From NCBI GenBank assembly GCA_910586865.1, contig CAJUIY010000003.1, positions 1 to 59,512 of the forward strand: a stretch of 59,512 bases of DNA, read 5' to 3'. The position numbers and the translations under genes were made by a program. Origin of the DNA: an uncultured Bacilli bacterium (GTDB lineage: Bacteria; Bacillota_I; Bacilli_A; RF39; UBA660). Each line of letters opens with the position of its first letter. Position 1 is the first letter of the stretch. Under the pieces are notes generated by a model. It made no database searches, had not been told where the DNA came from, and saw only the letters and a program-made list of their open reading frames with translations. Shown piece after piece: positions 3,600 through 20,073 of this stretch.

Positions 3600-5352
3600 T
3601 TTCTAATTCCTCCTTTGATAATTGAGATAGTGCTATTTGCTTATACACCTCACAATTTTCTAGTAACTCTTTATGAGTACCCATACCAACACATTTACCA
3701 TTATCTAGAACCAGAATCTTATCTGCATTCATAATCGTTCCTATTCTTTGAGCAACAATCAAATTTGTAGCATCTTTTGTATATTTTTTTAATTCATGCC
3801 GTAAGACCGAATCGGTTTTATAATCTAAAGCAGAAAAGGAATCATCAAAAATATAAATTTCAGGTTCTCTCGCTATCGCACGAGCAATGGCAAGTCTTTG
3901 TTTTTGACCACCACTAACATTTGTACCACCTGAGGCAATATGGGTATCATACTGATTATCCATCTTTAAAACAAATTCTTCTGCTTGAGCTACTTTAATG
4001 GCTTCCTTAATTAGTTTTTCACTCTTTTCTTTGCCACTATCTCCATAAGAGACATTGGATTTTACTGTTCCATTAAACATCACTGCTTTTTGAGGAACAT
4101 ACCCTAGTTTTTGATAAAGAAAGTCTAATTTATAGTCTTTTACATTCACACCATCGATTAGGACTTCTCCATCGGTTACATCATAAAATCTTGGAACTAG
4201 GTTTATCAGTGTGGATTTACCACTTCCAGTGGAACCTATAAAAGCAACGGTTTCTCCTTTTTTTGCGGTAAAGGAAATGTCTTTTAATAAGTACTCCTCG
4301 GCATCAGGGTATTTAAAAGAAACGTTCTTAAATTCTACCTCACCACGTTTTTTAGTAGTATCTTTGTCAATCGTTCCATCTTTTACCGTAATATCCGTTT
4401 CTAAGACTTCGTTAATTCGAGAGGCCGAAACTTGTGCTCTTGGAAGCATCATAAAAATCATGGCAAGCATCAAAAAGGATATAATAACCTGCATTGCATA
4501 AGAAGAAAAGACTACCATATCACCAAATAAAGTTAATTTATCGGCCATCATTGCCTTATCGATTAAGTCTGCTCCAACAAAGTAAATGGCAAGAGTTAAA
4601 AAATACATTACTAAATACATGATAGGAGACAAAATGGCAAACTTCTTTTGATTAAATAATTGCTGATTGGTTAAAGCATTATTGACATCTTCAAATTTAT
4701 TGCTTTGATACTTTTCGGCATTAAAGGCACGTACTACACGAATACCAATTAAGTTTTCTCTAGTAACTCCATTGATTTTATCTGTTAATTTCTGTACAAT
4801 CTTAAATTTTGGCATTACAATACTAACAATTATTCCAATCGTGGATAATAAAATAACAACTGCTACGGCAGTAATGGTACTCCATTGCCAACTCTTATTT
4901 AAAATTTTAGTAACCGCCCAGATTGCTGTAATTGGTGCTTTAATTAACAATTGAAGCCCCATTCCAATTAACATCTCTACTTGTGTAATATCATTTGTTG
5001 TTCTAGTAATTAAGCTATTGGTTGAAAATGTTTTTACTTCATGTGTCGATAAATCTTCTACTTTATGAAATATTTTTTTTCTTGTTCGCAAAGAAAACGT
5101 AGAAGCTAAACCCGAAACAATATATCCAACTATCGCCGCAAAGAATAAACTTCCAAAGGCACATAGTACCATATAAGCCCCATTTTCTAAAATGTCGGCC
5201 ATTTTACTACCCTCTGTTTGCACCAAAACAGTAATTTCTGACATATAATCAGGCATTTTTAAATCTAACCATACTTGTAGAAAAATAAGACTTACTCCTA
5301 ATAAAGCGAAAAGCCACTCTTTTTTTCTAAAACAAGTTAATAATTTTATCAT
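3589..5352 (-). CDS. ABC exporter permease/ATPase half-transporter (BmrC/YheI-like), partner of the 784-aa subunit (587 aa)
   Basis: Six-TM domain plus NBD (GSTGSGKST, VSGGQKQR, IFDDSFSALD). Overlaps the downstream partner gene by 11 nt. Confidence 0.9.
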   Translation of the reverse strand: MIKLLTCFRKKEWLFALLGVSLIFLQVWLDLKMPDYMSEITVLVQTEGSKMADILENGAYMVLCAFGSLFFAAIVGYIVSGLASTFSLRTRKKIFHKVEDLSTHEVKTFSTNSLITRTTNDITQVEMLIGMGLQLLIKAPITAIWAVTKILNKSWQWSTITAVAVVILLSTIGIIVSIVMPKFKIVQKLTDKINGVTRENLIGIRVVRAFNAEKYQSNKFEDVNNALTNQQLFNQKKFAILSPIMYLVMYFLTLAIYFVGADLIDKAMMADKLTLFGDMVVFSSYAMQVIISFLMLAMIFMMLPRAQVSASRINEVLETDITVKDGTIDKDTTKKRGEVEFKNVSFKYPDAEEYLLKDISFTAKKGETVAFIGSTGSGKSTLINLVPRFYDVTDGEVLIDGVNVKDYKLDFLYQKLGYVPQKAVMFNGTVKSNVSYGDSGKEKSEKLIKEAIKVAQAEEFVLKMDNQYDTHIASGGTNVSGGQKQRLAIARAIAREPEIYIFDDSFSALDYKTDSVLRHELKKYTKDATNLIVAQRIGTIMNADKILVLDNGKCVGMGTHKELLENCEVYKQIALSQLSKEELENAE

Positions 5353-5822
5353 ATATTAATTTTCACTCCTTTTCTAACAATTTCTATTTGCTGTTTTCTA
5401 AGACATAATACCTTCATCTTTCTATGACATTCAGGGCACCTTGTATGTTTTATTCCTCTAGTGGAAGGTAGTGGTAGTCTTAGTATGGTTTTACACTTTC
5501 GACATTTTTTGTAAATATGATTTCTATCTCTTTTTTCCCATTTTTCTTTTAATTTTCTTCTCAGTAATAAATATTTCACATTTTCTTCTTTTCTTTTTTT
5601 CTTATTCTTGGAATATTTTCGTAACATCATAATCGAAAGAAGAAAGATTTCAACTAGTAATAAACTACGAGAAGAGAAGAAAAGATTCACCATAATTAAA
5701 ATCGTTACGATTTTCAATATAAAATAATAGAGTTCATCTATTCCATAGCGATGATACATCCATTTTTGATACCAACTAATAAATTTCACACATTCCCTCT
5801 TTTCCTTTTTGATAAATTCCAT
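5349..5822 (-). CDS. membrane protein with very basic linker and C-terminal zinc-ribbon (CxxC...CxxC)
   Basis: Two predicted TM helices, a K/R-rich segment, then CRKCKTILRLPLPSTRGIKHTRCPECHRKM. Overlaps the ABC gene start by 4 nt. The true start may be Met22 (5759), just after the TetR stop. Confidence 0.55.
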   Translation of the reverse strand: MEFIKKEKRECVKFISWYQKWMYHRYGIDELYYFILKIVTILIMVNLFFSSRSLLLVEIFLLSIMMLRKYSKNKKKRKEENVKYLLLRRKLKEKWEKRDRNHIYKKCRKCKTILRLPLPSTRGIKHTRCPECHRKMKVLCLRKQQIEIVRKGVKINI

Positions 5823-6402
5823 AACAGATTAAATCTAATTTTTTCAAATAGATTTCTCTTCCTTTTTCTTCTTGTTTTCGAACACCATCTAAACAAGAAA
5901 AAATTAAATTGTGCATGAATACTCCAAAGATAAATTCCAAATCAGTCGTTATGATTCCTTCTTTTCGGATTAAACTTTCTACCTCCTGGAAAATACATCT
6001 TCCAGGATCTTCTAAAAATATGTTTTTTTGGCACACATAACTACAAACATTTTTTAAAAATATTTTTAAATCTACTTGTTTCATTTTATTCGCTAACTCA
6101 TCATATAAATCAATAAAAGCCTCTCTGATATTTCCATCCCTTTTTCTAAACGCCTTTTTAATAATATGAAGAAGTCTATCCTGATATCGTAAAATGATAT
6201 AATCAAACAAATCATATTTATCATCAAAATACATGTAGAAACTTCCCCTAGGAATTTGGGCAGCCACTACAATCTTATTAATCGATGCTTTTTCTAACGT
6301 TGCAGTCGAAAACTCTTTCATGGCAGCATTTATTAATTTTCTCTTTTTTTCTTCACTTAAATTATGAAATGTTTGACTTGGCATAAATTCACATCCTAGC
6401 AT
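5776..6402 (-). CDS. TetR/AcrR-family transcriptional regulator
   Basis: N-terminal TetR HTH (KRKLINAAMKEFSTATLEKASINKIVVAAQIPRGSFYMYFDDKYDLF). The likely true start is Met7 (ATG at 6384), which has an AGGA RBS. Confidence 0.85.
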   Translation of the reverse strand: MLGCEFMPSQTFHNLSEEKKRKLINAAMKEFSTATLEKASINKIVVAAQIPRGSFYMYFDDKYDLFDYIILRYQDRLLHIIKKAFRKRDGNIREAFIDLYDELANKMKQVDLKIFLKNVCSYVCQKNIFLEDPGRCIFQEVESLIRKEGIITTDLEFIFGVFMHNLIFSCLDGVRKQEEKGREIYLKKLDLICYGIYQKGKEGMCEIY

Positions 6403-6419
6403 ACTATATATGCTTTTTC

Positions 6420-6449
6420 ATTATATTATGACACCTTGTCAGTTGTCAA
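6420..6449 (-). promoter_or_regulatory. sigma-A-type promoter of the tetR-ABC operon with an embedded palindromic operator
   Basis: On the minus strand: TTGACA (6449-6444), 18 nt, TATAAT (6425-6420). The perfect inverted repeat TGACA-N3-TGTCA (6429-6441) lies in the spacer. Confidence 0.55.
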
Positions 6450-6502
6450 TAGTAATTTATCTAAGCCATTACTTATTATCTAGAGCCATTACTTATTATA
6501 TG

Positions 6503-6548
6503 CAAAAAAAAGAAGTGAGTTTATCTTTTTCAAAGTTACTTACCTCTT
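6503..6548 (-). terminator. probable terminator downstream of the CAP-domain gene
   Basis: 11-bp imperfect stem (6510-6520 / 6538-6548), followed on the minus strand by a run of 8 T. Confidence 0.5.
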
Positions 6549-6708
6549 TTTAATAAGGGAATGAAAATCTTTTGTTATATAACTAACCTTATAATCTTTT
6601 ATACCTAACTCACCAACACTTCCTGTTAAAATAGTAGAAGAAACTTAAGATGAATCAATCCCATGAGTATCAATCAATTGGTAGATTAATATTCCAAAGT
6701 GTAGTTCC

Positions 6709-8073
6709 CTAATGTAGTTCCATGCTAGAAGGATTTCCTACAATTAAACAGTCAAAAGTTGTCTTTTGACCATTATAATCTACAGTTACGGTTGTAATCC
6801 CCTTTGTTGCAGAAGAAAAGCCACTTATCATATCCTCTGTTAAAGTTAGCGTAAAGGTTTGGCCATCTTTATCAGTTACCAAAAGAGTACTGCCAGTAAT
6901 ATCAAAAGTATCTCCTACTTTATATGTATTTTTCTTTGGTGTAGCAATAATAGATAAGATAGAACTATCACTACTATCACTACTTTTATAGTTTGTTGCA
7001 TCAAAGAACTCTGTTTTATATTCAATCTTAGCAGCCTTTTTGGTTTTATTATCAACTAATCCTGTAATTTCTACTTTGTATTTATCACCTTCTTTATAAC
7101 GATTACCAGAGGCAGATGGTTGAACAAAGGAAAGATTATAAAAATTCTCTGTTAATTTTCCATTTGCCGTAGTACATTCATAAGATTCATTTGTATTGAG
7201 ATTCGTTACAATTACTTTCAAATTATTAAGTGAATAGCTCATTTCCGCTTTGTTGATTTCCAAAGTCCAAGCCGAAGTATCTACTGGTAAGTCATCAAGA
7301 GGCATATAACCAGGTGCTGGATAAGCAGTATAGGCAAGTGTTTTAGATGCTCCCGTTGCTCCTTTTCCAAGAGCGGAGTATCCCCAAAAACTATTTTGCG
7401 TACTACTAACATAAGCAAACTGAAGACTACTGACACTATCACTAATGATAAAAAATCTATGACCAACCGTATCAAAAGTCGCCTTATTTAAATCATAACC
7501 TTCATCTAACCATCCTGTAATAGCTCCAGTAGGGGTGTATCCCCATGCCAAAATGTTATTGCTTGCTTTCGCACCTTGATTCCATAAGGCCTCACTCATA
7601 TCTGCTGGTTTTCCTTGCGTATTATTAATAATATGATTATGGTTCCAGATACGAACTAAGGCTCCTGCTTGTAAATCAGCAGAATGTGAAGAAGTATTTA
7701 AGGGTTTTGATCCAACCAACCATCTATAATAATTGGTCAGTGCCGTCATAGCAATATGAGTATCTTCTGTTAATTCTCCCCCATTATAAGGTGCTACTAC
7801 AGATGGTTTATTCTTGTAATAACTTTTCTCATCCCCCTCTTTATAAGTAAATCCTGCATTTTTTGCTTTATTATATTCACTAGCTATTTCCTTCTTACTT
7901 CTATTTTTAAATACCTCCCAATCATTTGCATTGTAGACCACTACCTCAATAGCCTTTGTCTCTAGACACAAAAAGGAAATACTAAAAAGGATAGTAGCAA
8001 ATAAAACAATTGCTAGTAACCCTTTCTTCCTTAATTTCTTTTTTTGCATTTTATCTCTCCTATTTTCCGTCAT
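6709..8073 (-). CDS. secreted CAP/SCP (PR-1-like) domain protein with C-terminal bacterial Ig-like domain (454 aa)
   Basis: N-terminal signal/anchor helix. CAP-like block (YYRWLVGSKPL ... GWLDEGY ... GHRFFIIS). The C-terminal about 80 aa resemble Big_3-type Ig repeats (YKVGDTFDITG...TVTVDYNGQKTTF). Confidence 0.75.
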   Translation of the reverse strand: MTENRRDKMQKKKLRKKGLLAIVLFATILFSISFLCLETKAIEVVVYNANDWEVFKNRSKKEIASEYNKAKNAGFTYKEGDEKSYYKNKPSVVAPYNGGELTEDTHIAMTALTNYYRWLVGSKPLNTSSHSADLQAGALVRIWNHNHIINNTQGKPADMSEALWNQGAKASNNILAWGYTPTGAITGWLDEGYDLNKATFDTVGHRFFIISDSVSSLQFAYVSSTQNSFWGYSALGKGATGASKTLAYTAYPAPGYMPLDDLPVDTSAWTLEINKAEMSYSLNNLKVIVTNLNTNESYECTTANGKLTENFYNLSFVQPSASGNRYKEGDKYKVEITGLVDNKTKKAAKIEYKTEFFDATNYKSSDSSDSSILSIIATPKKNTYKVGDTFDITGSTLLVTDKDGQTFTLTLTEDMISGFSSATKGITTVTVDYNGQKTTFDCLIVGNPSSMELH

Positions 8074-8150
8074 TCAAAAGGGTAAATGTATTCTATTTCC
8101 TTATATACTCTTACCTAACCCGTCTGTATTTCTATGACTTTTTTCTTAGT

Positions 8151-8179
8151 ATTATATTAAATCACTCTCTAATAGTCAA
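8151..8179 (-). promoter_or_regulatory. sigma-A promoter for the CAP-domain gene
   Basis: On the minus strand: TTGACT (8179-8174), 17 nt, TATAAT (8156-8151). Confidence 0.5.
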
Positions 8180-8277
8180 CCAATTTTAAAAAGGAGAGTT
8201 AGCATATAAAATAATGATATATACTGACTTTTGCCCCACTAGTTTTCTCCTTCCTTGCTGAAGGAAACTTTTAAGAA

Positions 8278-8309
8278 CAAAAAATCTACTATGTGATATC
8301 ATAGTAGAT
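8278..8309 (-). terminator. terminator after tRNA-Glu
   Basis: Stem ATCTACTATG / CATAGTAGAT (8284-8293 / 8300-8309), followed on the minus strand by TTTTTTG. Confidence 0.55.
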
Positions 8310-8322
8310 AAAAAAAATAAAA

Positions 8323-8399
8323 TGGTAGCCTGTACGGAATTCGAATCCGTGGATGCTGCCTTGAGAGGGCAGTGTGTTGAGCCTCTTCACCAACAGGCC
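8323..8399 (-). tRNA. tRNA-Glu (anticodon CUC)
   Basis: Hand-folded cloverleaf: acceptor GGCCTGT/ACAGGCT, anticodon stem CTGCC/GGCAG with loop CTCTCAA, T-loop TTCGAAT, encoded CCA. Very similar in layout to Bacillus tRNA-Glu. Confidence 0.9.
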
Positions 8400-8491
8400 A
8401 GAAACAATGTCTTCTTGAAAAGACAATATTATCTTACCATTAATTTTCGTTTTTGGCAAGTGTTTTATGAAAATTTTGTCGATTTTTACAG

Positions 8492-8926
8492 TTAATGATA
8501 TAAAGAAAACTTTTTGGTAAGTGGATCTAGTACTTCTTTTTCACCAAAAGTAACTAAACAATAGTATTCCATCTCTTCATTTGATGTTGCTAAAGTTTTT
8601 TCTAATTGTTCTTGGTAAGTATCCCCTGTCATTGTTTCTGTAAAATCTGTATAAAGAAGATTATGTTCCATCAGTTTTTGTCTTAATTTCTTAATTTCTC
8701 CATTTTTTCCTTTCAATACAATGAGTGATAGTCCTGAAATACTTTCATGAAGACCTCCATCCTTATCAGTAAAATCGATAAAACTCATCTTTTCTTTTAT
8801 CTCATCTGGAGCTTTCGCAACCAATCCTGCACAAGAGTGTGCAATCGCATTCAGGGCCTTTCCTATTTCTAAATTTTTATTGACAACTGCTACCAATTTA
8901 TGGGTTTCGTTATATACCATAAACAT
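8492..8926 (-). CDS. DUF2000-family protein (144 aa)
   Basis: Sequence pattern matches my recollection of DUF2000 (KLVAVVNKNLEIGKALNAIAH...DKDGGLH...LIVLKG...DFTE...Y..L..FG). Confidence 0.7.
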   Translation of the reverse strand: MFMVYNETHKLVAVVNKNLEIGKALNAIAHSCAGLVAKAPDEIKEKMSFIDFTDKDGGLHESISGLSLIVLKGKNGEIKKLRQKLMEHNLLYTDFTETMTGDTYQEQLEKTLATSNEEMEYYCLVTFGEKEVLDPLTKKFSLYH

Positions 8927-9006: not shown

Positions 9007-9279
9007 ATGTATCAAATACAAGATGCTTTCTATGCAGCAGAACAATTAGGTATTCAGTTCCATCAGTTTAGTCCTGAGGAGTTTTTAACTGGTATTAATA
9101 TAGAACTAGAACATGGAACCATTCATGAGAAAACAAATGTAACGAATGATGATTTAATTACCACAGCAAAGATTGCTTTGGCTCACTTAAACGAATTTCC
9201 TAATTATTATAATAAAGACTATGGATTACTTGTATTCGAAAAATTTTTAGAATCCAAGCTACCAAAGTCTAAAAAATAA
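9007..9279 (+). CDS. small conserved protein, DUF5661-like (90 aa)
   Basis: Motifs IELEHGT and AKIALAHLNEFPNYYNK are as I recall for DUF5661. Followed by a weak hairpin and T-run. Confidence 0.6.
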   Translation: MYQIQDAFYAAEQLGIQFHQFSPEEFLTGINIELEHGTIHEKTNVTNDDLITTAKIALAHLNEFPNYYNKDYGLLVFEKFLESKLPKSKK

Positions 9280-9397
9280 AGAGCAACCCTTAGCTAGTGC
9301 TCTTTTCTTTTCGACTGAATGGAATTACTAAAGCCCAAGAACATCACCCTATTTTCGAAAGATAAGAATGGTATTCTCAGCCACTTCTTCCATTCTC
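9166..9397. repeat. copy A of a diverged direct duplication of about 230 bp (3' end of the DUF5661 gene, terminator, and a decayed 3' end of the Asp-box gene)
   Basis: Hand alignment with 13191-13426. The core (9223-9285 vs 13248-13309) is roughly 85-90% identical and the outer parts are weaker. Same orientation, about 4025 bp apart. Confidence 0.75.
9328..9397 (-). pseudogene. decayed fragment homologous to the 3' end of the Asp-box protein gene at 13229-13915
   Basis: On the minus strand, GAGAATGGAAGAAGTGGCTGAGAA ... CTTGGGCTTTAG aligns with GAAGATGGAAATGGCTATGAAGAG ... CTTGGGTTTTAG of the intact gene. The fragment is interrupted by stops. Confidence 0.35.
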
Positions 9398-9471
9398 AAA
9401 GAATAATTACAAATAAACTTCTTCTGTAAAAAAGAAATCGTATTTTCATATATATCATTTCACATTTCCGC

Positions 9472-10116
9472 CTATTTATTGTTAGAAAGTTTTTTTAGGA
9501 TGCCATCCTCAATCTGATAAGTTTCGTCACATAATTTATGAATATCTTCTTTAATATGCGTAGCTATAATAATTATTTTTCCATCTTTCTTCTCCTTTTG
9601 TAATAATTTTCTAATATTTTTGATACTATTATCATCTACTCCATTAAACGGCTCATCAAAAATTAAGACCTCAGGATCTTCCATAAGGACTTGAGCAATC
9701 CCCAACTTTTGTTTCATGCCTAACGAATACTTATGATATAGCTTATTTGCTTCTTTTTCAAGCCCTACGTTTTGTAATGATTTATCAATCTCGTCTTCTC
9801 CAATTTTAGATTGTAAAGAAGCTAGAAGACTGAGATTTTCTTTTCCTGTTAAATCTGGCAAAAAACTAGGATTTTCTATTAAGGCTCGAGTACTTGGTGG
9901 AAATAAATTATTTTTAATAATATCTACTCCATCAAATAATATTTGTCCTTCGGTTGGTTCCAAAAATGCACATAACATTTTTAATAATATGGTTTTCCCA
10001 GAACCATTAACTCCAATTATTCCATAAATATTTCCACTTTCAAAAGTTAAGTTTACTTTTCTCAATATTTCTACTTCCTTAAATTTTTTTGATACATTTT
10101 TTACTTCTATTTTCAT
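9472..10116 (-). CDS. ABC transporter ATP-binding protein, ABC-2 / lantibiotic-protection (LanF/BcrA)-like (214 aa)
   Basis: Walker A GVNGSGKT, signature YSLGMKQKLGIAQ (typical of LanF/BcrA-type NBDs), Walker B LIFDEP, H-loop ATH. Start overlaps the upstream permease stop by 4 nt. Confidence 0.85.
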   Translation of the reverse strand: MKIEVKNVSKKFKEVEILRKVNLTFESGNIYGIIGVNGSGKTILLKMLCAFLEPTEGQILFDGVDIIKNNLFPPSTRALIENPSFLPDLTGKENLSLLASLQSKIGEDEIDKSLQNVGLEKEANKLYHKYSLGMKQKLGIAQVLMEDPEVLIFDEPFNGVDDNSIKNIRKLLQKEKKDGKIIIIATHIKEDIHKLCDETYQIEDGILKKLSNNK

Positions 10117-11558
10117 AATTTACCTCCTAACATTTCCGTAACATTTCTTCTTTTTAATTTAATATTTTTTATCAGTTGTACCATTAAAATTATGGTAAGA
10201 ATTAGTAATCCATAAAGATAATGACGATACCAAATGATGTTTTTTGGCATTAGAGTGATAAAAATCATGATAAAGCAAAAAATCATTCCTTTTCTAATAA
10301 AATTACCCTCTTTACAGTGAAACAAAATCCATAGACTAACTTGTTGTACTATATTTGTAAATAAAACGTCGGATATGAATAAATTGATAATACTTTTGAA
10401 ATCGAAATTAGAATTAGTTTTTAAACATATCATTAAAATTAATACGATATACTGACTTATCTTTATCATAGTTAGTAAGAAAATAAGCACTATTTGTTTG
10501 TTAAAACACCATTTTGTAGTAGAAATCCTTAAAAATAAATTATCTTTCTTTCTAATCAAATCATGGATGTAAAAAGAGATTGCCAAATAGATGTGAATCA
10601 TAATGTTAATAATAAACATCATGATATCAATAGGAAAATAGCTATCTATCCTTAATCCCATGCTGGTAATCAGCATCTCCTCACTACTAATATCATAGTT
10701 AGAAATAATAAAATATAAAGAAAAGGCAGGAATAAGAATTAATGTGAGTATGTATTTATAATTTTTCTTTATCATATATTTTATATCGCTTATGGCAATA
10801 TATTTCATAAATATTTTCTCTCTCCTATTTATCAAGTGGTAGACAAAAATAACTAGTACTTCCAACAAAAGTATATATAGTAGAGAGTAACTAACTTCAA
10901 GCATAAAATTTCCATAATCAATATTTTCAAAATATCGCCAGATTGGTAACTGAAAAGTATTAGTAGTTTCCATGATTCCTAATGGATATAACCAAAAGGC
11001 AAAAACAAAGATAAAATCAATTACAATGACTTTTTCCTCTTTTAGTTTATGATACAAAAAGACATTAAAGATACTAACTAAAAGGGTAAGTACTATATAT
11101 CTTAGTAAATAAAAGATAGTATAGACCATATTATTAATATATCCATTATAGCTTTTGATATAGATATAGCCGCATTTTAAAATATTTACAACACTTAAAT
11201 AAGAAAGTAGGATAACTAAACTAACGATTAAATTACTGTAAACTACTAGTTTTATTAATTCTTTCAAATATTTCTTTTTGTTCTCTAGTCTTATAAGGTA
11301 AGAATCATATTGATTAAAAGTAGAACAAACATTCACGGTATTAATTAAAATTACTAAAAAGAATAAGCTATTGAAAGTTGCAAATTGAAAGGTATTTAAT
11401 ATTGCTGAAAAATAATTTTTAATTCCTGCCGTTAGAACAAAACTTCCATATAAACTTAAGAGAATGGATAAAAGTATGGTAGCTTTAAACTTTCTTGTTT
11501 TTGTGATAAATTTTAAAATCTCTGTAGTAGTATTTTTTTTATGAAATTTCTCTTTCAT
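10113..11558 (-). CDS. polytopic membrane protein, putative second permease component of the ABC-2 system (481 aa)
   Basis: More than 10 hydrophobic helices, extremely AT-rich coding. Overlaps both neighbours (20 nt with the upstream permease, 4 nt with the downstream ATPase). No recognisable motif. Confidence 0.65.
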   Translation of the reverse strand: MKEKFHKKNTTTEILKFITKTRKFKATILLSILLSLYGSFVLTAGIKNYFSAILNTFQFATFNSLFFLVILINTVNVCSTFNQYDSYLIRLENKKKYLKELIKLVVYSNLIVSLVILLSYLSVVNILKCGYIYIKSYNGYINNMVYTIFYLLRYIVLTLLVSIFNVFLYHKLKEEKVIVIDFIFVFAFWLYPLGIMETTNTFQLPIWRYFENIDYGNFMLEVSYSLLYILLLEVLVIFVYHLINRREKIFMKYIAISDIKYMIKKNYKYILTLILIPAFSLYFIISNYDISSEEMLITSMGLRIDSYFPIDIMMFIINIMIHIYLAISFYIHDLIRKKDNLFLRISTTKWCFNKQIVLIFLLTMIKISQYIVLILMICLKTNSNFDFKSIINLFISDVLFTNIVQQVSLWILFHCKEGNFIRKGMIFCFIMIFITLMPKNIIWYRHYLYGLLILTIILMVQLIKNIKLKRRNVTEMLGGKL

Positions 11559-12462
11559 TTTCGATCAAAACCCTTTCTTTCGTTTGGTAACTTTTCCATA
11601 AAATGATATAAGACGATATACAGAATAGAATAGAAAAGAAACAAGGAATGATTAAATTGTTATTGCTATCTAAATTCCAATATGCTAGTAGATTAAAATA
11701 TTCATATGGTATATCAATTCCTAATATTTTATTAATAATTAGGGCATAAACTCCTGCATATAAAATAATAACAAAGATAAAATAAGTGATATAAGCATAA
11801 AGAATGGTTATGAATTTTGATTTACTTTTTTTACAAAAGATAATTCCTATATTTCCATAGAATATTCCTAAAAAGAAGTGAATAATACACAATGCAAACC
11901 CATATAATAAAAAGTGATTATATTTAAAAGGTTCATATACAGCAATTCCTTTTACTTCCGCATCCATATTAAAATTAAACCTAGTAATCAAACAAGAAAG
12001 TATAAATGTCAAAATAAATAAAAACGGTAGGAATAAAGCGGGTTTTAAACTTTTTTTCAATATTTTTTTGAGGTAATCTTTATAACGAATTCTTGTTAAA
12101 TAATTTTTAATCATACCACTACTAAATTCAGAATGTATACTATTAATTGTTAAGATGATAATAATTAGAGGTTCTATTAATGGAAAGTTTTGAAATTCAT
12201 GATGCGCTACTATTTCATATGTCAAAGTAAGTGCATCTAATTTTTTTAATTTTTCTTTAGGGGATTCAAAGGTGCTAAACTCTTTACAGATAAGTTCATC
12301 TTTGGTTTTTTCACATTTTTCCTTTATTTCATTGTAATAGGGACCATATGAGTAATAATCTCTATAATATTGATAAAAAGAAATTAATACAATAAATATA
12401 GAAATAAAAATAGCTAATATTATCAGATTGTTTTTTTTAATATATCTTTTCCATTTTTCCAT
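11539..12462 (-). CDS. ABC-2-type permease-like membrane protein (307 aa)
   Basis: TM1, then an extracytoplasmic loop of about 70 aa, then five TMs. EFSSGMIKNYLTRIRYKDYLKK resembles the conserved E..sGt...ll..p.sR block of ABC-2 permeases. Confidence 0.65.
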   Translation of the reverse strand: MEKWKRYIKKNNLIILAIFISIFIVLISFYQYYRDYYSYGPYYNEIKEKCEKTKDELICKEFSTFESPKEKLKKLDALTLTYEIVAHHEFQNFPLIEPLIIIILTINSIHSEFSSGMIKNYLTRIRYKDYLKKILKKSLKPALFLPFLFILTFILSCLITRFNFNMDAEVKGIAVYEPFKYNHFLLYGFALCIIHFFLGIFYGNIGIIFCKKSKSKFITILYAYITYFIFVIILYAGVYALIINKILGIDIPYEYFNLLAYWNLDSNNNLIIPCFFSILFCISSYIILWKSYQTKERVLIENEREIS

Positions 12463-12527
12463 AAGGTAATTGTCCTTTCTTATTCGTCTGATAAATGCAA
12501 GTTTGGGGTAATTATTTCAGTTTTTTA

Positions 12528-12932
12528 TTAATCTAAATTCCAAGAACCATAGAAACTACCAGTAGTAATAAAAGAGTTTTTCGCTCTAAGATTCAAACGA
12601 TAAGTCGATGGTACTGTGTTGTTTCCATTGGTTTCTGTTAATTGAATAGAAGTTCCCTTTGGCAGACTTTTCCAACTAGATGTTGTGCCATTATTAACAC
12701 GATAAGTTCGTGCCTCGATTGCCATTTCGTTACCACTTACATCATCTGTACAAGTAGTTTTTACTGCAAACTGATTACTATAGTTATCTTTGTTGTGATT
12801 ATTAGTTGAGCTAGTTTGACTTCTTATCTTTATTGTTAAATCTACAATTCCTACGACTTGTGCAGATGCTGAACTTAGTGCAAAAAAGAATGTTAGAAGA
12901 AATAATAAAGATGTTATTTTTACGTATTTCAT
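12528..12932 (-). CDS. secreted beta-rich protein of unknown family (134 aa; mature about 110 aa)
   Basis: Strong RBS AAAGGAGG. Sec signal peptide with an ASA-Q cleavage site and no lipobox. The mature part is S/T/N-rich with alternating beta-strand-like patterns, and the C-terminus is GSFYGSWNLD. First gene of the ABC-2 cassette. Confidence 0.7.
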   Translation of the reverse strand: MKYVKITSLLFLLTFFFALSSASAQVVGIVDLTIKIRSQTSSTNNHNKDNYSNQFAVKTTCTDDVSGNEMAIEARTYRVNNGTTSSWKSLPKGTSIQLTETNGNNTVPSTYRLNLRAKNSFITTGSFYGSWNLD

Positions 12933-13190
12933 ATCATATCGTACCTCCTTTAATAATTACCCTGTTTGCACTTTATAATTATCATAATTTGTAGAATAAT
13001 GTTTCATAATTCTTTGAAATGTATAGTTAAGGAAGTTAACGGCTATTTTTTATTAAATCATAGCACATTGTTGACGTTTTGTATACTAATTTGTTATTCT
13101 TATACCATAGAAAGAATGATTTAGGATAAAATCATAATATCTAGGTTACAAAATCTTAAAACATCTCATTTTGTTATTTTAATTTGATGA

Positions 13191-13304
13191 CTTGTTTTTG
13201 CTTTGGCTCTCTTAAATGAATTTTCTAATTACAACAATAAACGCTCTGGATTACTTATTTTCGAAAAATCTTTAAAAATCCAAGCTACCAAATCAAAAAA
13301 ATAA
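13191..13304 (+). pseudogene. relic of the last 37 codons of a DUF5661-like gene
   Basis: Plus-strand translation LVFALALLNEFSNYNNKRSGLLIFEKSLKIQATKSKK* aligns with AKIALAHLNEFPNYYNKDYGLLVFEKFLESKLPKSKK* of 9007-9279. Preceded by an in-frame TGA at 13188, with no upstream coding continuation. Confidence 0.7.
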
Positions 13305-13426
13305 AGAGCCACTCTCAATCTATTGCTCTTTTCTTTTTGATTAACTGTATTTTCTAAAACCCAAGTAAGTCCTTTATCAATACTTTTAAACTCAAAATCC
13401 TTCTCTTCATAGCCATTTCCATCTTC
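13191..13426. repeat. copy B of the diverged direct duplication of about 230 bp
   Basis: See copy A. Here the Asp-box gene is the intact member and the DUF5661 part is the relic. Confidence 0.75.
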
Positions 13427-13915
13427 TGTTAAATCATAAACAGAACATTTCATTCTTAATTCGCTACCAGCTTGATAAGGAAATTCCTCGATTGTAATCA
13501 AATCCACATTTTCATTATCATAGGAAAACTTAGCATCCATAAAAGTTTTTCCTCCATCTAAAGTTACTTTAAATCCTTTAAAATCATTTTCTCTTCTTAT
13601 ATATCCAGTGGATATAACATAACCTACTTTCTCATTCGTAAACAAAAACCTGGCTTCTTGACTCACTGTAATTGGCTCCTTTGTTACTTTGGTATAACTT
13701 TTCCCATTGTCTGTACTTTTTTCCACTCCTACTATCCTATTTTGTCCAAGAACATCATCATATTTTTGAAAAGAAAGAATGGTATTTCTAAATCTTCTTG
13801 AATAGAGAAGATTCTCCTCTACTTTTTCTTTCTTATTATTAGAAAATAATAAGAAGAAAAAAACAATAAGGATACCAAGAATAAGAAATAGACTAAAAAT
13901 TTTTTTCTTGTCCAT
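13229..13915 (-). CDS. membrane-anchored extracytoplasmic protein with Asp-box (BNR-like) repeats (228 aa)
   Basis: N-terminal TM helix. Three S-x-D-x-G-x-(T/S)-(W/F/Y)-like motifs (STDNGKSY, TLDGGKTF, SIDKGLTW). Start abuts the stop of the upstream gene. The last about 35 codons read antisense through the DUF5661 relic. Confidence 0.65.
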   Translation of the reverse strand: MDKKKIFSLFLILGILIVFFFLLFSNNKKEKVEENLLYSRRFRNTILSFQKYDDVLGQNRIVGVEKSTDNGKSYTKVTKEPITVSQEARFLFTNEKVGYVISTGYIRRENDFKGFKVTLDGGKTFMDAKFSYDNENVDLITIEEFPYQAGSELRMKCSVYDLTEDGNGYEEKDFEFKSIDKGLTWVLENTVNQKEKSNRLRVALYFFDLVAWIFKDFSKISNPERLLL

Positions 13916-14717: not shown

Positions 14718-15740
14718 TCATTCTTTTCTTATTTTTTTCTCTTCAATATGATGTATACTACTTTTTGGAAGGATGAGAATTACTTTAGTATATTCTTTCT
14801 CTTTTGATTCTATTTGTAACTTTAATCCAAGTTTTTCACATAATTTATTGGAAAGATATAAACCCATACCAGTTGCTTGTTCTTTTTTTCGATTTTTTCC
14901 CGTAAAACCTTTTTCAAATACACGAGTAATATCAGAGGATAAAATACCACACCCATTATCCATTATTTCGAGGACTAGCTTGTTTTTCTCTTCTTTGGCT
15001 TTGATTTCTATTTTCTTTCTTTTTTTATCCAAATATTTAATGGAATTTTGAATGATTTGTGAAAGAATAAAAATTAACCATTTTTCATCGGTATAGACAA
15101 AGTAATCTAAATCTTTTATTTCTAGTTGAATCTTTCTTTTTAAAAGATAATTCTTATAATTTAAAAGTACTTGATGAATCACTTCCTCTAGCTTTATCTT
15201 TTTTACAAAATAATCGTGATAAACGTCTTCACTTCTCGCATAAAAAAGAATTTGTTCTACTAAATGATAAATTTTTTCTAATTCCTCTTTGGCTTCTTCC
15301 TGTTCTAAATTATCAAACATCAAAGATAATGCAGAAATAGGAGTTTTAATTTCATGTACAAAACTTTCAATATACTCACGATAATCCTTTTTTTCTTCCT
15401 CTATCATACTAAGTTTATCATGAAAAGATTTACAAGTTTTCTTTAACACTTCATAGTATCCTAGATTTTCTAGATTCTTTGGTCTTTTCATGATAGTAGA
15501 AATCAAATACTTTTCCTCCAAACTATCAACCATATGAATCATTTTTTCTACTTTTTTTCTCTCTTGGTAGAAATAAATTCCGAAAGAAAGAAAAGTATAA
15601 AAAAGAAAAATACTACAATAAAGAATAATAAAAGGAAAAGGGACTTGAAAAATACCTAGTAAAATACTATTAAAAACTAAAAAAGAAATAACAAAAATGA
15701 GAAACCATATTTTACTTTCTAGAAATGTTAAAAATCTCAT
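14718..15740 (-). CDS. BceS-type intramembrane-sensing histidine kinase (340 aa)
   Basis: Two N-terminal TM helices with almost no extracellular loop. H-box HEIKTPIS. N, G1 and G2 boxes (NSIKY, DNGCGI, GMGLYL). Overlaps the response regulator gene by 4 nt. Confidence 0.9.
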   Translation of the reverse strand: MRFLTFLESKIWFLIFVISFLVFNSILLGIFQVPFPFIILYCSIFLFYTFLSFGIYFYQERKKVEKMIHMVDSLEEKYLISTIMKRPKNLENLGYYEVLKKTCKSFHDKLSMIEEEKKDYREYIESFVHEIKTPISALSLMFDNLEQEEAKEELEKIYHLVEQILFYARSEDVYHDYFVKKIKLEEVIHQVLLNYKNYLLKRKIQLEIKDLDYFVYTDEKWLIFILSQIIQNSIKYLDKKRKKIEIKAKEEKNKLVLEIMDNGCGILSSDITRVFEKGFTGKNRKKEQATGMGLYLSNKLCEKLGLKLQIESKEKEYTKVILILPKSSIHHIEEKKIRKE

Positions 15741-16408
15741 AAGCGATACCCTTGTCCCCGAATCGTTTCTATAAAGTTAGTAATTCCAATCTCTTCTGCC
15801 TTTTTTCTTAAACGATTGATATTTACCATTAAAATATTCTCATCTAGATAACATTTATCATTCCATAGGTACTCTAACAGCTCCTCTTTCGTAATAATAC
15901 GATTCTCCTCTAAAAAGAAATAATAAAGAATACGAAATTCATTTCTCGTTAATTCTATTTCTCTTCCCTTATATTTTAAAATAGATAAGTGTAAATCTAA
16001 AGTGTACCCTTTTTTTGTAATCTCTTTATAGTTTTTAGGATCTATCATCTGAAGTGCTCTTTTGATTTTTTCTAATAAAATACTTTTATGATAAGGTTTT
16101 GTTATAAAATCAATTCCACCGGATTGAATACTAATTAATTCATCTTTTTGGGTATTTCTACTGGTAACAAAGAGAATAGGAATATTACTCTTCTTTTTAA
16201 TTCTTTTACAAATCGCAAAACCACTTTCATAAGGTAAATTAATGTCTAAGAGAATTAAGTTGATCGAATAAAGAGAAAGACTTTCTTCTATTTTTTCAAA
16301 GTCCGTTATTTTAATCGTCTGATAACCATTGGTTTCTAATAATTTCGAAAGTTCTTCTCGAATGACTTCTTCATCTTCAATAATCGCAATTGTCATGAAA
16401 AACACCAC
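15737..16408 (-). CDS. OmpR/BceR-family response regulator
   Basis: Receiver domain (IIEDEE...LLDINLP...) plus a winged-helix output (TRNEFRILYYF...RGQGYRL). The likely true start is ATG at 16396, preceded by AGGTGGTG. Confidence 0.9.
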   Translation of the reverse strand: MVFFMTIAIIEDEEVIREELSKLLETNGYQTIKITDFEKIEESLSLYSINLILLDINLPYESGFAICKRIKKKSNIPILFVTSRNTQKDELISIQSGGIDFITKPYHKSILLEKIKRALQMIDPKNYKEITKKGYTLDLHLSILKYKGREIELTRNEFRILYYFFLEENRIITKEELLEYLWNDKCYLDENILMVNINRLRKKAEEIGITNFIETIRGQGYRL

Positions 16409-16431
16409 CTACTTTTTATTGTACCATGTAT

Positions 16432-17001
16432 CTAAAACAATTCCATAAAAATACTATAAAAAATTAAAGTAAATGGTTTTCCAACCACAATATAAAGAAA
16501 AAACTTTTTTAGACTCATATTGGATAATCCTGCCACATAACATAATAAATCATCTGGTAGGCCTGGTAATAGAATCCCTAAGAAGAAGATTTGATGAAAT
16601 CTTTTTGTCTTAATATAGGCTAGATACTTCTCAATGGTTTCTTCTTTGAATAATTTTTTGACAAAAGGAAGACCATATCTTCTAGATAAAAGAAAAGCAA
16701 CAACAGAACCTAATACTAGACCAATATAGTTATAAATAAAACCAAAGATTGGACCAAAAGCAAGAACTCCTGCGAGACAAGAAGCTCCTCCTGGTATCAC
16801 AGGAAATACTACTTGTACCATCTGCAAGAAAAGGAAAAAGATTGGTGCTATGACCCCAAACTTTTGAATATAAGAAACGAGTATCTCCTTTTCTTTAAAA
16901 ATTCCTAGTTTTAATCCATAAAGAATAAAAAGAATAATTAAGATGGTCATAATAATCGTTACCATATGAAAGATTGTTTTTACTTTGTTTTTTTGCTGCA
17001 T
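16432..17001 (-). CDS. TVP38/TMEM64 (DedA-superfamily, SNARE-associated) membrane protein (189 aa)
   Basis: Typical TVP38 pattern: FPVIPGGASCLAGVLAFGP ... LPGLPDDLLCYVAGLS. Embedded between bceB and the two-component genes. Confidence 0.8.
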   Translation of the reverse strand: MQQKNKVKTIFHMVTIIMTILIILFILYGLKLGIFKEKEILVSYIQKFGVIAPIFFLFLQMVQVVFPVIPGGASCLAGVLAFGPIFGFIYNYIGLVLGSVVAFLLSRRYGLPFVKKLFKEETIEKYLAYIKTKRFHQIFFLGILLPGLPDDLLCYVAGLSNMSLKKFFLYIVVGKPFTLIFYSIFMELF

Positions 17002-17046
17002 TTTACTACTCCTTACTACTATTTATTATTTGTCTTTTTTTTCTTC

Positions 17047-19056
17047 TTATTCCTCTACATTCTTTTTAAATCCAAAGTAAGTAGATAGAAAGTAAAGGAA
17101 ATAAATTATTAGAAAAAGGAAAATATTCATACCAAAATAAGTTAAATAAACCGTATCTTTTTCTAATGATACTTTAAAGATTCGATTCATCGATGTTAAA
17201 GTACAAATACTTATGATAGTTGGATAAAGAAGAGGGAAAAGGAAAAAGATGGAGAGTTGTTTGAATATGGTCTTATGAAGAGTATCTCTACGGACTCCTA
17301 ATTTACTTAATACTTGATAACGATATTTATACTTTGTAGAATCACTTAATTGTTGAATTGCTAAAATGGTTCCCACAACCGCAGTAAACACAAAAGCGAT
17401 ATAAAAACAAACAAAAGCAATGATTGTTACAAATCCATTATTTTGAGATTTTTCTTTTCCCCGTACAATTAAATTAGCAATGGAATAACAAAGATATTGA
17501 CCATTCTCATTATAATAACAAAAATCATCATCCGAAAACTTCGCAAGTTTATCATAAAAAGCCTCTGTCGTCTCCTCTTTCGTATCCACAATTAAATGAG
17601 AATCTGCGATTTTAAGATTTTCTACGATAGAATCTGGTACTACGATGGTAAAGCCATATCCCATTCCCCAAGCATAAGTATATCCTTCTGTAAAAAAATA
17701 TTTTTGCTTCAATTGTTTTCCATTTGATAACGTAATTTCTTTTAAGTCTTTATCATTTTTTAAAGTCTTATACTCTCTCGTAACATGTAATAAATATTCA
17801 TCCTCTAAAAGAGAAACCTCTTTCTTTCCTCTTAATTTTAATAACTTGTTATAGTCACTTAATTTAATAAACTGATCATGTTCTCTCCAACCAGCCTCAT
17901 CCCCTGATTTTCTGGCAATGGCTTTCATCACATTATTATTATTTTCGTAATAACTATCATAAATTAATTCTTCTTCTATGGTATAGTGTTCTTTAATAAA
18001 TTCCTCATATTTCTTGATATCTTCTTTTTTAATATCTAAACTAATATCATAAGGTGCTACTACTTCTAATTGATAGTCAAACATTCCTTTAAATAAACTA
18101 GATAGATTTAAGGCAATTAGGGTAAAGGCAATGAAAGCGGTTAAGGTTCCTATTGTAAATCCCATGGTCTTCATCTTAGAAGCAAAACATCTTGCAATAA
18201 ATAGATTGTCACTATGATATTTTATCTTCTTATTTTTTAAAACAAGTTGGAGGATAAAATGAGAAATCGAAATGGATAGTAAATAAATACTAAGAAGAAG
18301 GAAAAGAATACAAATAAAAATCATAATGAGAGAAGGATTTCTTCCTAAGGTGTGAAATTCTCTATCAAATAAATCAAGAGAAGTTACTCCTAATATGAGA
18401 GAGATAAGAAGAAAAAGTCCCTGATAACTCGCTTCTTTTTTCCTTCTTTTTTCATTTTGTTTTTCAAGATAGAAAAGATCATATACTTTTATTTTTTTTA
18501 CTCTTCTTCTAGAAAGAAATAAAACAATAAAATAGATAATACAAAAATAAAGAAGTAAAGTGAGAATAGCTTGGATAGAAAAATCTATTTTTACTAGTTG
18601 TCCTAAATCAAAAATATTCATAATAATAGAAGAGGCAAAGATACTAAAGAGATAACCAATTGGCAAGGATAGTAAAAAAGAGAAAGAACCTAGTATTATA
18701 TTTTCTAGAAGAAACATCTTTGTAATATAAGATTTTTTAATTCCTAGTATTAAATAAGTTCCAAATTCTTTGCTTCTTTTTTCAAACATAAATTTTGTCG
18801 TATAGTTAATTAAAAAACAGATAACAAGTATCATGAAAATATTTACGATATACATCACCAATTGAAAGGATTTCATCACATAACTTAACTGTAATACTTC
18901 TTTCGAATTACTAAGCAAGTTAAAAGCAAACATCAAGGAAAAAGCCATCATTACTGTAATAAAATAGATGACATAGTCCTTACTACTCCTTTTTGCATTT
19001 AGAAAAGCTAACTTACTTAACACTAGAAACATCTCCCCCAAGTAATGTAATGACAT
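17047..19056 (-). CDS. BceB-type FtsX-family ABC permease (669 aa)
   Basis: About 10 TM helices with a large extracytoplasmic domain between TM7 and TM8, the size and layout of BceB/VraG permeases. Overlaps bceA-like; the real start may be an internal Met. Confidence 0.85.
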   Translation of the reverse strand: MSLHYLGEMFLVLSKLAFLNAKRSSKDYVIYFITVMMAFSLMFAFNLLSNSKEVLQLSYVMKSFQLVMYIVNIFMILVICFLINYTTKFMFEKRSKEFGTYLILGIKKSYITKMFLLENIILGSFSFLLSLPIGYLFSIFASSIIMNIFDLGQLVKIDFSIQAILTLLLYFCIIYFIVLFLSRRRVKKIKVYDLFYLEKQNEKRRKKEASYQGLFLLISLILGVTSLDLFDREFHTLGRNPSLIMIFICILFLLLSIYLLSISISHFILQLVLKNKKIKYHSDNLFIARCFASKMKTMGFTIGTLTAFIAFTLIALNLSSLFKGMFDYQLEVVAPYDISLDIKKEDIKKYEEFIKEHYTIEEELIYDSYYENNNNVMKAIARKSGDEAGWREHDQFIKLSDYNKLLKLRGKKEVSLLEDEYLLHVTREYKTLKNDKDLKEITLSNGKQLKQKYFFTEGYTYAWGMGYGFTIVVPDSIVENLKIADSHLIVDTKEETTEAFYDKLAKFSDDDFCYYNENGQYLCYSIANLIVRGKEKSQNNGFVTIIAFVCFYIAFVFTAVVGTILAIQQLSDSTKYKYRYQVLSKLGVRRDTLHKTIFKQLSIFFLFPLLYPTIISICTLTSMNRIFKVSLEKDTVYLTYFGMNIFLFLIIYFLYFLSTYFGFKKNVEE

Positions 19057-19789: not shown

Positions 19790-19925
19790 GCTCCATTTGT
19801 GATTTTACTAATCGAATCCCTTTTGTTAAAAAATAGATAATCCCTACTACCAATAAAAAAGGAATCATTAGAATAAGAACAAGGCAAATTAGTAATTTTA
19901 AAAGAATATTTTTTACACTATTCAT
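19782..19925 (-). CDS. unannotated 47-aa single-TM small protein translationally coupled to the bceA-like gene
   Basis: Hand translation: MNSVKNILLKLLICLVLILMIPFLLVVGIIYFLTKGIRLVKSQMERV. RBS AGAAGGGA lies 7 nt upstream. Its TAA stop is separated by 1 nt from the bceA ATG (TAAAATG). Below the ORF-track cutoff. Confidence 0.45.
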   Translation of the reverse strand: MNSVKNILLKLLICLVLILMIPFLLVVGIIYFLTKGIRLVKSQMERV

Positions 19926-19949
19926 CTATGTTCCCTTCTTTCTAATAAA

Positions 19950-19992
19950 ATTATATCAAAAAAAAAGATAGATAAACCTTACAGTTTTGTTA
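19950..19992 (-). promoter_or_regulatory. putative BceR-dependent promoter: inverted repeat TAACA-N4-TGTAA upstream of a perfect -10
   Basis: On the minus strand: TAACAAAACTGTAA (19992-19979), 23 nt, TATAAT (19955-19950). The -35 is weak (GGTTTA) and abuts the repeat, as expected for an activator-dependent promoter. Confidence 0.45.
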
Positions 19993-20013
19993 GGTTAAAG
20001 TAAGAAAGGTGGT

Positions 20014-20052
20014 CAAATAAAAAAAGAAGAAAATATGGCAGAGTTTCTTCTT
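20014..20052 (-). terminator. terminator after the DUF4097 gene
   Basis: Stem AAGAAGAAA / TTTCTTCTT (20024-20032 / 20044-20052), with a T-run on the minus strand. Confidence 0.55.
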
Positions 20053-20073
20053 TTTATTTATCATGAAAAGCTT

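Follow-up and report, generated by a model that had tools for sequence, protein, structure and literature searches.

We analyzed a 59,512-nucleotide (nt) stretch of DNA from an uncultured Bacilli bacterium (contig CAJUIY010000003.1 of assembly GCA_910586865.1), which we call the window. Four minus-strand open reading frames (ORFs) span positions 9472-12932 and encode, in transcription order, an exported protein, a membrane protein here named H, a 481-amino-acid (aa) membrane protein and an ATP-binding cassette (ABC) ATPase. The set recurs elsewhere and fits no characterized family. This supports the suggestion, made in an earlier reading of the letters alone (the sequence-only reading), that the cassette is an undescribed system built on a LanF-like ABC-2 transporter. 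Its parts are as follows.

12932-12528, minus strand: exported-protein gene, 134 aa
12463-12527, minus strand: spacer between the exported-protein gene and the H gene, 65 nt, unstructured, includes the ribosome-binding site (RBS) of the H gene
12462-11539, minus strand: gene for the membrane domain H, 307 aa
11558-10113, minus strand: gene for the fused membrane protein, 481 aa
10818-11558, minus strand: Nh, the N-terminal half (residues 1-247) of the 481-aa protein, placed by BLAST and hidden Markov model (HMM) mapping
10113-10817, minus strand: Ch, the C-terminal half (residues 248-481) of the 481-aa protein, placed by homologue mapping
10116-9472, minus strand: ATPase gene, 214 aa

The ORFs, their coordinates and strand, the overlaps and the 65-nt gap are all as the sequence-only reading had them. 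The 307-aa and 481-aa genes overlap by 20 nt and the 481-aa and ATPase genes by 4 nt (ATGA), the start codon of the ATPase gene overlapping the stop codon of its neighbor. Because of these overlaps and the common orientation, the four genes are read as one transcription unit. They are real genes and not chance ORFs, since all four keep conserved homologues in the same arrangement elsewhere. The strongest RBS within the cassette is that of the first gene, a GGAGG-type site, AAAGGAGGT, 10 nt before the ATG of the exported-protein gene. The 65-nt spacer had been credited with a possible hairpin. We found none; its minimum free energy is -2.5 kcal/mol, weaker than that of all 200 of 200 shuffles (z = +2.1). 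The equivalent spacer is 20-53 nt long in other chromosomal versions and 276-281 nt long in the version borne on an integrative and conjugative element (ICE). The G+C content of the cassette is 25.8% vs 29.4% for the whole window, which puts it in the lowest 2% of equal-sized windows. Low G+C is owed mainly to the membrane genes, because the exported-protein gene has 32%. We therefore discarded it as proof of foreign origin: it is weak in that role, being for the most part a matter of membrane-protein composition.

The exported protein and the transporter

The exported protein begins MKYVKITSLLFLLTFFFALSSASA/QV and ends GSFYGSWNLD. Its signal peptide (residues 1-24, encoded at 12861-12932) consists of MKYVK, a hydrophobic core and ASA/Q. 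The signal peptide with its A-x-A site, the C-terminus and the mature part of about 110 aa agree with the earlier description. The protein is thus predicted to be exported by the Sec pathway, cleaved after Ala24 and released as a mildly basic, cysteine-poor protein of about 12 kDa.

A profile search of 1.84 billion representatives returned 140 proteins at E ≤ 1e-3, 59 of them at E ≤ 1e-10. Nearly all 140 cluster representatives are 130-140 aa long and align over their full length. A word-indexed search yielded no more than six clusters at 90% identity. Pfam and NCBIfam (E ≤ 0.01) gave no consistent family among 128 aligned members, each listed family being matched by one member, and the family profile had no match among PDB sequences. 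Kinship with DUF5979 was considered and rejected; a single sub-threshold match (21.7 vs 25 bits) came from 1 of the 128 members, the window protein, and was treated as chance. These searches place the 134-aa protein in a family that is real but has no name. The sequence-only reading, which had recognized nothing in it, was right in this respect, as the Pfam, NCBIfam and PDB sequence searches gave no family.

Diversity within the family is very high (mean column identity 23%). Across the 128 members A24 (97%), K48 (98%), Q54 (93%) and W131 (99%) are conserved, and the mature part also keeps P35, D63, an S-G-(D/N)-E-(R/M)-A loop and G129. The n-region of the signal peptide retains M1, K2 and K5 across the family. 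This region (M-K-Y-L-K, residues 1-8) carries 2.6 bits per column vs 1.6 for the mature protein in the same alignment. It is unusual for Sec signal peptides that the n-region is better conserved than the mature protein. Mature proteins are about 110 aa and mostly basic (median isoelectric point 8.8), and 115/128 have no cysteine or one. We saw no lipobox cysteine in the sequences inspected, which end in ...W.L(D/N), and found no LPXTG motif or C-terminal anchor. Giant fibronectin-type-III repeat proteins (P0119, P0151 and P0156) match profile positions ~80-121 many times, with E-values of 1e-5 to 5e-8. These matches probably reflect a common beta-strand pattern (W...Y.L.LRA.N) and not homology.

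AlphaFold, given the 128-sequence alignment, returned a model with a predicted local distance difference test score (pLDDT) of 94 and a predicted template modeling score (pTM) of 0.79. It supersedes a model built from six sequences only, which was unusable (pLDDT 46). A signal-peptide helix (residues 2-19) is followed by a compact eight-strand jelly-roll beta-sandwich. The first strand is confidently packed, leaving no free N-terminal connector. Foldseek neighbors are VP2 of infectious bursal disease virus (E 5e-4), carbohydrate-binding modules of family CBM6, the EclA lectin domain, Ena2A fibers and small unnamed phage proteins. Template modeling (TM) scores are 0.35-0.49 for PDB entries and reach 0.68 for one of the unnamed phage proteins, with identities of at most 20%. 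Ena2A is among the weaker matches (E 3e-3, TM 0.31-0.35). The model thus fixes the fold class of the predicted structure and points to no specific homologue.

The 214-aa ATPase matches PF00005 (E 2e-30) and carries the signature YSLGMKQKLG. In NCBIfam it scores highest with TIGR03740, the model of lantibiotic-protection ATPases, at 180.4 bits vs a cut-off of 309.75. The next best are DrrA (TIGR01188, E 8e-42), GldA and the ATPase of the lactococcin 972 (Lcn972) type. Of the structures solved so far, ABCA nucleotide-binding domains and NosF come closest. By sequence, the ATPase belongs to the ABC-2 / type V class (LanF/BcrA/DrrA-like). The sequence-only reading had called it LanF/BcrA-like from its SLGMKQK signature. 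The signature and the best match to TIGR03740 uphold that call, while the curated cut-off of the model is not reached.

Hydropathy indicates about six helices in the 307-aa protein and about 12 in the 481-aa protein. The counterpart of the latter is two genes in loci L015, L019 and L031 (L and P numbers denote loci and proteins outside the window), one for Nh (~249 aa) and one for Ch (222-231 aa). Because they are separate genes there, two domains of ~240 aa are seen to be fused in the 481-aa protein. The motif [FY]L.R......[YW] follows the second helix in each of H, Nh and Ch, as read by eye, and an hhalign comparison of H with Nh gave a weak relationship (E 3e-4 over 179 columns). The transporter is accordingly described, from sequence, as three related six-helix membrane domains (H, Nh and Ch) and one LanF-like ATPase. 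This replaces the earlier picture of two dissimilar membrane proteins: the larger one is a two-domain fusion, and the three resulting membrane units have the motif after the second transmembrane helix in common.

The membrane domains are poorly covered by family models. H has a weak match to ABC2_membrane_2 (E 0.033, 13.9 bits vs a gathering threshold of 27.2). Nh and Ch have no Pfam or NCBIfam match, either as window proteins or as homologues, and a permissive NCBIfam search (E ≤ 1) gave nothing for the membrane proteins of the window or for ten H/Nh/Ch homologues. H homologues are 267-323 aa long. The first outer loop of H (residues ~33-95) is enlarged to about 60 aa and contains a YQYY.DYYSYGPYY motif and two cysteines. 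Across homologues this insertion measures 32-46 residues and reads YQYF.DYY.Y.P.YYE, again with two conserved cysteines.

Recurrence of the module and its sister transporters

Counting the window, we found nine independent full versions of the cassette (secreted protein, H, Nh, Ch and ATPase). They are listed as this window; L001; L003/L027; L008-L012/L034; L013/L043; L015; L019; and L031. L027 is an Erysipelotrichaceae metagenome-assembled genome (MAG) from rumen, L019 a Bacilli MAG from rabbit, and L008-L012/L034 an ICE in human-gut metagenomes. An H homologue follows every family member that has enough downstream DNA. Two refuting outcomes had been set beforehand: that the four genes do not co-occur in other genomes, and that the 134-aa protein falls into a characterized family unrelated to antagonism or immunity. 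The cassette passed both tests, with the four genes co-occurring in nine independent versions and no characterized family for the protein. Identity to the window is 30-61% for the exported protein, 31-51% for H, 27-43% for Nh/Ch and 55-69% for the ATPase. The gene order of L019 (883-6432) is permuted to Ch-ATPase-exported protein-H-Nh, an argument that the linkage is functional and not accidental. Upstream of this version lie genes for an unrelated 252-aa beta-rich exported protein and a 376-aa XRE-type regulator, and downstream is a GntR-like gene.

Two versions are ICE cargo, located between type-IV-secretion genes and a serine recombinase, and their exported proteins are 36% identical. These cassettes adjoin XRE or sigma-like regulators and have diverged about as much as the ICE backbone proteins. 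We considered accelerated allele replacement of the cassette within the ICE and rejected it, the backbone being equally diverged. Both ICE-borne versions have a pemK RNA (Rfam RF02913, 56-60 bits) on the stretch from the cassette to the serine-recombinase genes (L008 13887-13967; L015 5338-5418), and a sigma-70 region-4-like gene of 160 aa stands just upstream of this RNA. Other versions are plainly chromosomal; one, for example, is flanked by frr and a DUF92 gene. A 6S RNA gene (Rfam RF00013, 57 bits) immediately follows the L001 cassette (5007-5190), which therefore has a chromosomal, non-ICE context. The Rfam matches in related loci (pemK RNA, 6S RNA and a tRNA) are unrelated to the cassette.

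Locus L002 (1-4794) is a variant of L001 with a clean 2.6-kb deletion, its flanks being 97% identical. The join is at a 10-nt overlap and corresponds to L001 positions 1931-4530. H, Nh-Ch and the 5' part of the ATPase gene are gone, and the exported-protein gene is intact.

The family is rare. A hand-built, partial degenerate DNA pattern for the family, run on the GTDB genomes (185,579 species), gave 13 loci, only two of them with true family members, and the JGI metagenomes gave two loci with the family. There were no relatives in IMG/VR, among INPHARED phages or among PLSDB plasmids, and a phage or plasmid origin was set aside for this reason. Outside the window, no two-component sensor stands beside the cassette; in the window a Bce-like one adjoins it and is apparently separate. 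We did not find a lantibiotic precursor, LanB/C/M, LanT, LanP or LanRK beside any version examined. A 176-200-aa protein with an N-terminal zinc ribbon and membrane helices with LLGPLY..YRG recurs beside this cassette and the sister type described below; it may be downstream, upstream or divergent, and is sometimes present in two copies. It was located at L008 12162-12722; L003 4549-5109; L027 3185-3745 and 2480-3034; L015 252-782; L036 6765-7358 and 6443-6751; and L042 143-1310. No homologue was detected in the window or beside the L001, L031 and L043 cassettes.

More than 120 proteins are close relatives of the ATPase (63-73% identity). Among those sampled, P0186 lies within an exported-protein cassette and the others lie in a simpler chromosomal cassette consisting only of H' (274-279 aa), Nh' (248-259 aa) and the ATPase. 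The ATPases of three independent cassettes of this sister type are 66-69% identical to that of the window:

L036, 7442-9654: sister cassette, chromosomal
L039, 1027-3207: sister cassette, chromosomal
L041, 133-2328: sister cassette, chromosomal

The sister cassettes adjoin a ferredoxin gene and polC and are much commoner than the version with an exported protein. They lack the exported protein, Ch and the H loop insertion (0/3 each). Ch is present in 9/9 versions with an exported protein and 0/3 sister cassettes. The loop insertion occurs in 7/8 distinct versions with an exported protein (L015 is without it) and in 0/3 sister transporters. From these comparisons, the exported protein, Ch and the outer-loop insertion of H form one add-on to a pre-existing two-domain pump. 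This pattern is the strongest structural clue to the mechanism of the module: the outward-facing parts of the pump have changed along with the arrival of the exported protein. The sister transporters without the add-on offer a natural with/without comparison.

Flanking sequences and the insertion scar

The regions bordering the cassette contain the following features.

12933-13197, minus strand: upstream non-coding region, contains the RBS of the cassette
9271-9312, minus strand: hairpin and U-run downstream of the ATPase gene, from its fold a likely bidirectional terminator
9173-9330, no strand: right repeat copy, the 3' end of a DUF5661 gene and its terminator
13198-13355, no strand: left repeat copy, a relic, read through by the 3' end of a 228-aa ORF

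An imperfect direct repeat of about 150 nt (~80% identity) brackets exactly the cassette and its upstream region. We read it as an insertion scar, and it is better evidence of foreign origin than low G+C. The horizontal-acquisition scar that the sequence-only reading had reported is thus borne out, at 9173-9330 and 13198-13355. The 228-aa ORF (13229-13915, minus strand) runs through the left relic with its 3' end, and its C-terminus is therefore probably not original.

Downstream of the ATPase gene, a stem-loop, GAAAAGAGCAC...GUUGCUCUUU, is followed by AUUUUUU. It is likely to be a terminator common to the cassette and the convergent DUF5661 gene. The call is made from anatomy only, because the z-score of the 68-nt stretch is not significant, and a consensus terminator scan found no terminator-like site. 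An Rfam scan (E ≤ 1) of 9200-13400 detected no riboswitch or known RNA motif. Promoter-like hexamers upstream of the cassette are no commoner than in shuffles, and the promoter position was not fixed by them.

The cassette is directly preceded by an envelope-stress block (14718-21875). In it are genes for a BceS-like kinase and response regulator, for a DedA/VTT protein, for an FtsX permease of the BceB-like kind (669 aa) and for a BceA-like ATPase; those for a LiaF-like protein and a DUF4097 'toastrack' protein come next. Two uncharacterized genes (259 and 228 aa) trail the kinase gene with almost no spacing. The neighboring modules named in the sequence-only reading are real: the Bce-like one lies at 14718-19789 and the LiaF/DUF4097 pair at 20074-21875. 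Downstream (1245-8926) are a TetR regulator and a heterodimeric type-I ABC exporter (784 and 587 aa), a 454-aa exported CAP and Big_3 protein, a tRNA-Glu gene (8323-8399) and a DUF2000 gene. As reported earlier, we saw among the annotated neighbors neither a lantibiotic precursor nor a modification enzyme nor a dedicated regulator. A conserved partnership with the flanking 228-, 259-, 144- and 90-aa genes or with the Bce-like two-component system was rejected, as none of them accompanies the cassette elsewhere.

Possible functions and comparison with known systems

We tentatively favor a protein bacteriocin that is exported by Sec and has an ABC pump dedicated to self-protection, though this is preferred only marginally to the non-toxic partner discussed below. 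The jelly-roll protein would probably act from outside on the cell envelope, and K48, Q54, D63 and the S-G-(D/N)-E-(R/M)-A loop may form a lectin-like or ligand-binding site. On the outside of the producer membrane, the transporter would recognize either the protein or the complex that it forms with an envelope target. Recognition via Ch and the enlarged H loop would leave the producer unharmed. The logic of such an operon would be that of lactococcin 972, and its machinery would be of the LanFEG type. A precedent is lactococcin 972, a bacteriocin that is exported by Sec, has a beta-sandwich fold without cysteines and binds lipid II (PMC8538875). The product here is released, unanchored and mildly basic, it is encoded by the first gene with the best RBS, and no sensor accompanies the cassette outside the window, all of which favor a bacteriocin. 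Inducible peptide-resistance pumps (Bce/Cpr/Nsr) usually have a two-component sensor. Carriage as ICE cargo in the human gut, the insertion scar in the window and a sporadic, rare distribution are typical of antagonism.

Several observations weigh against a bacteriocin. L002 keeps an intact exported-protein gene without the pump; the protein is therefore apparently tolerated without it, which mildly counters a suicide toxin. The exported protein is not the fastest-evolving component (30-61% identity vs 27-51% for the membrane domains). The cassette keeps pace with the ICE backbone in its divergence and shows no sign of diversifying selection or allele swapping. The contexts examined contained no tandem toxin paralogues and no orphan Ch without the secreted protein. 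A folded 12-kDa protein would be an odd substrate for a LanFEG-like mechanism that expels its substrate from the membrane, and the base transporter is a common chromosomal system without a secreted partner. Antibacterial activity is putative for every member of the family.

Only slightly less favored is a protein that is not toxic and serves as an extracellular partner of a resistance or export pump. It would dock on the H loop and/or Ch and capture a ligand or shield the target of that ligand, which may be an antimicrobial peptide, a lipid-II-bound antibiotic or a wall-derived molecule. LanI/NisI with LanFEG, YxeA with YxdLM and PcsB with FtsEX are role models, and the module would protect against compounds of other organisms. 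The strict co-occurrence of the exported protein, Ch and the H loop insertion argues for such a partner, as does the fact that the protein evolves in step with the membrane domains and slightly slower. Tolerance of the protein alone in L002, the insertion of the window cassette beside Bce-like and Lia-like envelope-stress modules, and the best match of the ATPase to a lantibiotic-protection model point the same way. The invariant polar residues suggest a single conserved ligand. LanI and LanFEG cooperate in known systems (PMC4828448), but described LanI proteins are lipoproteins or membrane-associated (PMC4828448), whereas the exported protein has no lipid or membrane anchor. None of the nine versions carries its own two-component sensor or inducible regulator, the Bce-like one adjoining in the window only, and we found no sequence or profile similarity to LanI, YxeA/DUF1093 or binding-protein families; both count against a resistance partner.

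We regard as improbable a non-toxic protein that serves as a detachable extracellular subunit of a three-domain ABC-2 machine, although its exported partner does arrive with new extracellular and membrane parts of the pump. The pump would load or unload this soluble carrier with a membrane- or wall-derived molecule, or ATP hydrolysis would switch the docked protein, with the logic of LolCDE-LolA, LptB2FGC-LptA, NosDFY and FtsEX-PcsB in a single-membrane bacterium. The ATPase is nearest to lipid-handling ABCA-type nucleotide-binding domains and NosF, but this similarity is generic for the ABC-2 class. The sister transporter is common, chromosomal and beside polC, suggesting a physiological export role; yet no conserved cargo-synthesis genes stand beside the cassette. 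The modeled protein is a compact S/T/N-rich jelly-roll without an obvious hydrophobic groove (not looked for in the coordinates), and an unanchored carrier would diffuse away in a monoderm. Least probable is a subunit of a surface fiber or coat, polymerizing like TasA or Ena with the transporter aiding assembly. TasA and Ena proteins are jelly-rolls in Firmicutes, and Ena2A is one of the weaker Foldseek matches. None of the 128 members has a Pfam match to TasA/camelysin or DUF3992, and the model has no free N-terminal connector. Ena relies on cysteine-rich connectors, whereas 115/128 members have one cysteine at most. No cassette contains a signal peptidase or sortase (a sortase lies 8 kb away in L009). 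Anti-phage defense was also considered and discarded; PADLOC gave generic ATPase similarity only and nothing for the exported or membrane proteins.

If the favored bacteriocin reading is true, the module would represent a new family of Sec-dependent protein bacteriocins with ~140 clusters and a jelly-roll fold, unrelated to lactococcin 972, and would bring with it a separate type of ABC self-protection in Erysipelotrichaceae-like bacteria of gut and rumen. The means of competition of these bacteria are poorly known, and the module moves on conjugative elements in the human gut. A pump accessory would instead represent a new way for ABC-2 transporters to gain an extracellular partner and a third membrane domain. 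A hand-off machine would be a Gram-positive counterpart of LolCDE-LolA, Lpt and FtsEX-PcsB, assembled from unrelated families and spread by conjugative elements.

The closest likeness in operon logic is to Lcn972. Both operons begin with a Sec-exported, unmodified, cysteine-free beta-sandwich protein, followed by polytopic membrane protein(s) and an ABC ATPase with a presumed role in protecting the producer, and neither has modification enzymes or a dedicated regulator. The proteins themselves differ. The Lcn972 family (PF09683/TIGR01653) matched neither the window protein at E ≤ 1 nor the 128 members at E ≤ 0.01. With PDB 2LGN as the Lcn972 query sequence, hhalign gave the family profile a probability of 0.3%, and 2LGN appeared neither in the PDB profile search (E ≤ 10) nor among the top Foldseek matches. 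The mature part is an eight-strand jelly-roll of 110 aa here vs a six-strand sandwich of 66 aa in Lcn972. The FtsX-like membrane protein of the Lcn972 type (TIGR01654/DUF1430) has no match, three ABC-2-like domains taking its place, and the Lcn972-type ATPase model TIGR03608 scores 115.7 bits vs a cut-off of 254.85. The lactococcin analogy drawn in the sequence-only reading thus survives as operon logic and fails as family membership.

The likeness to the lantibiotic-immunity transporters is in the machinery. LanFEG(H) systems with LanI (NisFEG/NisI, SpaFEG/SpaI, GdmFEG with GdmH) also include an extracellular protein component (PMC4828448, PMC5945643, PMC8538875). The unfused Nh and Ch (~225-250 aa, six helices) match LanE and LanG in size, and GdmH/EpiH are comparable in size to the ~300-aa H. 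LanFEG is defined by two subunits of ~215-255 aa and an ATPase, whereas here there is also a third related subunit, H (267-323 aa). H, Nh and Ch match none of the LanE/LanG models (MutE/EpiE, MutG; TIGR03732/TIGR03733), and the ATPase gene is last here and first in LanFEG. LanI is a lipoprotein or membrane-associated, whereas the exported protein has a signal peptidase I cleavage site and is not LanI-like because it has no lipobox. The LanI analogy drawn in the sequence-only reading thus fails as family membership, on account of the missing lipobox and of permeases that match no LanE/LanG model, and the module is no curated LanFEG member either.

Other comparisons concern the fold or the general arrangement. 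Small jelly-roll lectins and carbohydrate-binding modules (CBM6, EclA/LecA-type) and viral capsid projection domains are of the same fold class, with eight strands and ~110 residues. This is a resemblance of fold only, no sugar- or metal-binding residues being mappable in the exported protein. YxeA/DUF1093 (PF06486) has no match in the 128 members; nor have TasA/camelysin and Ena (DUF3992) in Pfam, and no cassette has a signal peptidase gene. FtsEX-PcsB/CwlO, LolCDE-LolA, LptB2FGC-LptA and NosDFY likewise encode a pump with a Sec-exported soluble partner. Their families have no sequence relationship to the exported protein or the membrane domains, and the comparison is one of logic only, the host here being apparently a single-membrane Firmicute. 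The module thus belongs to none of the named families tested and appears to follow the scheme of other known pairs in which a small exported protein joins an ABC-2 pump. For its four unannotated families (exported protein, H, Nh and Ch), so far labeled 'hypothetical', a joint annotation as one module is now possible.

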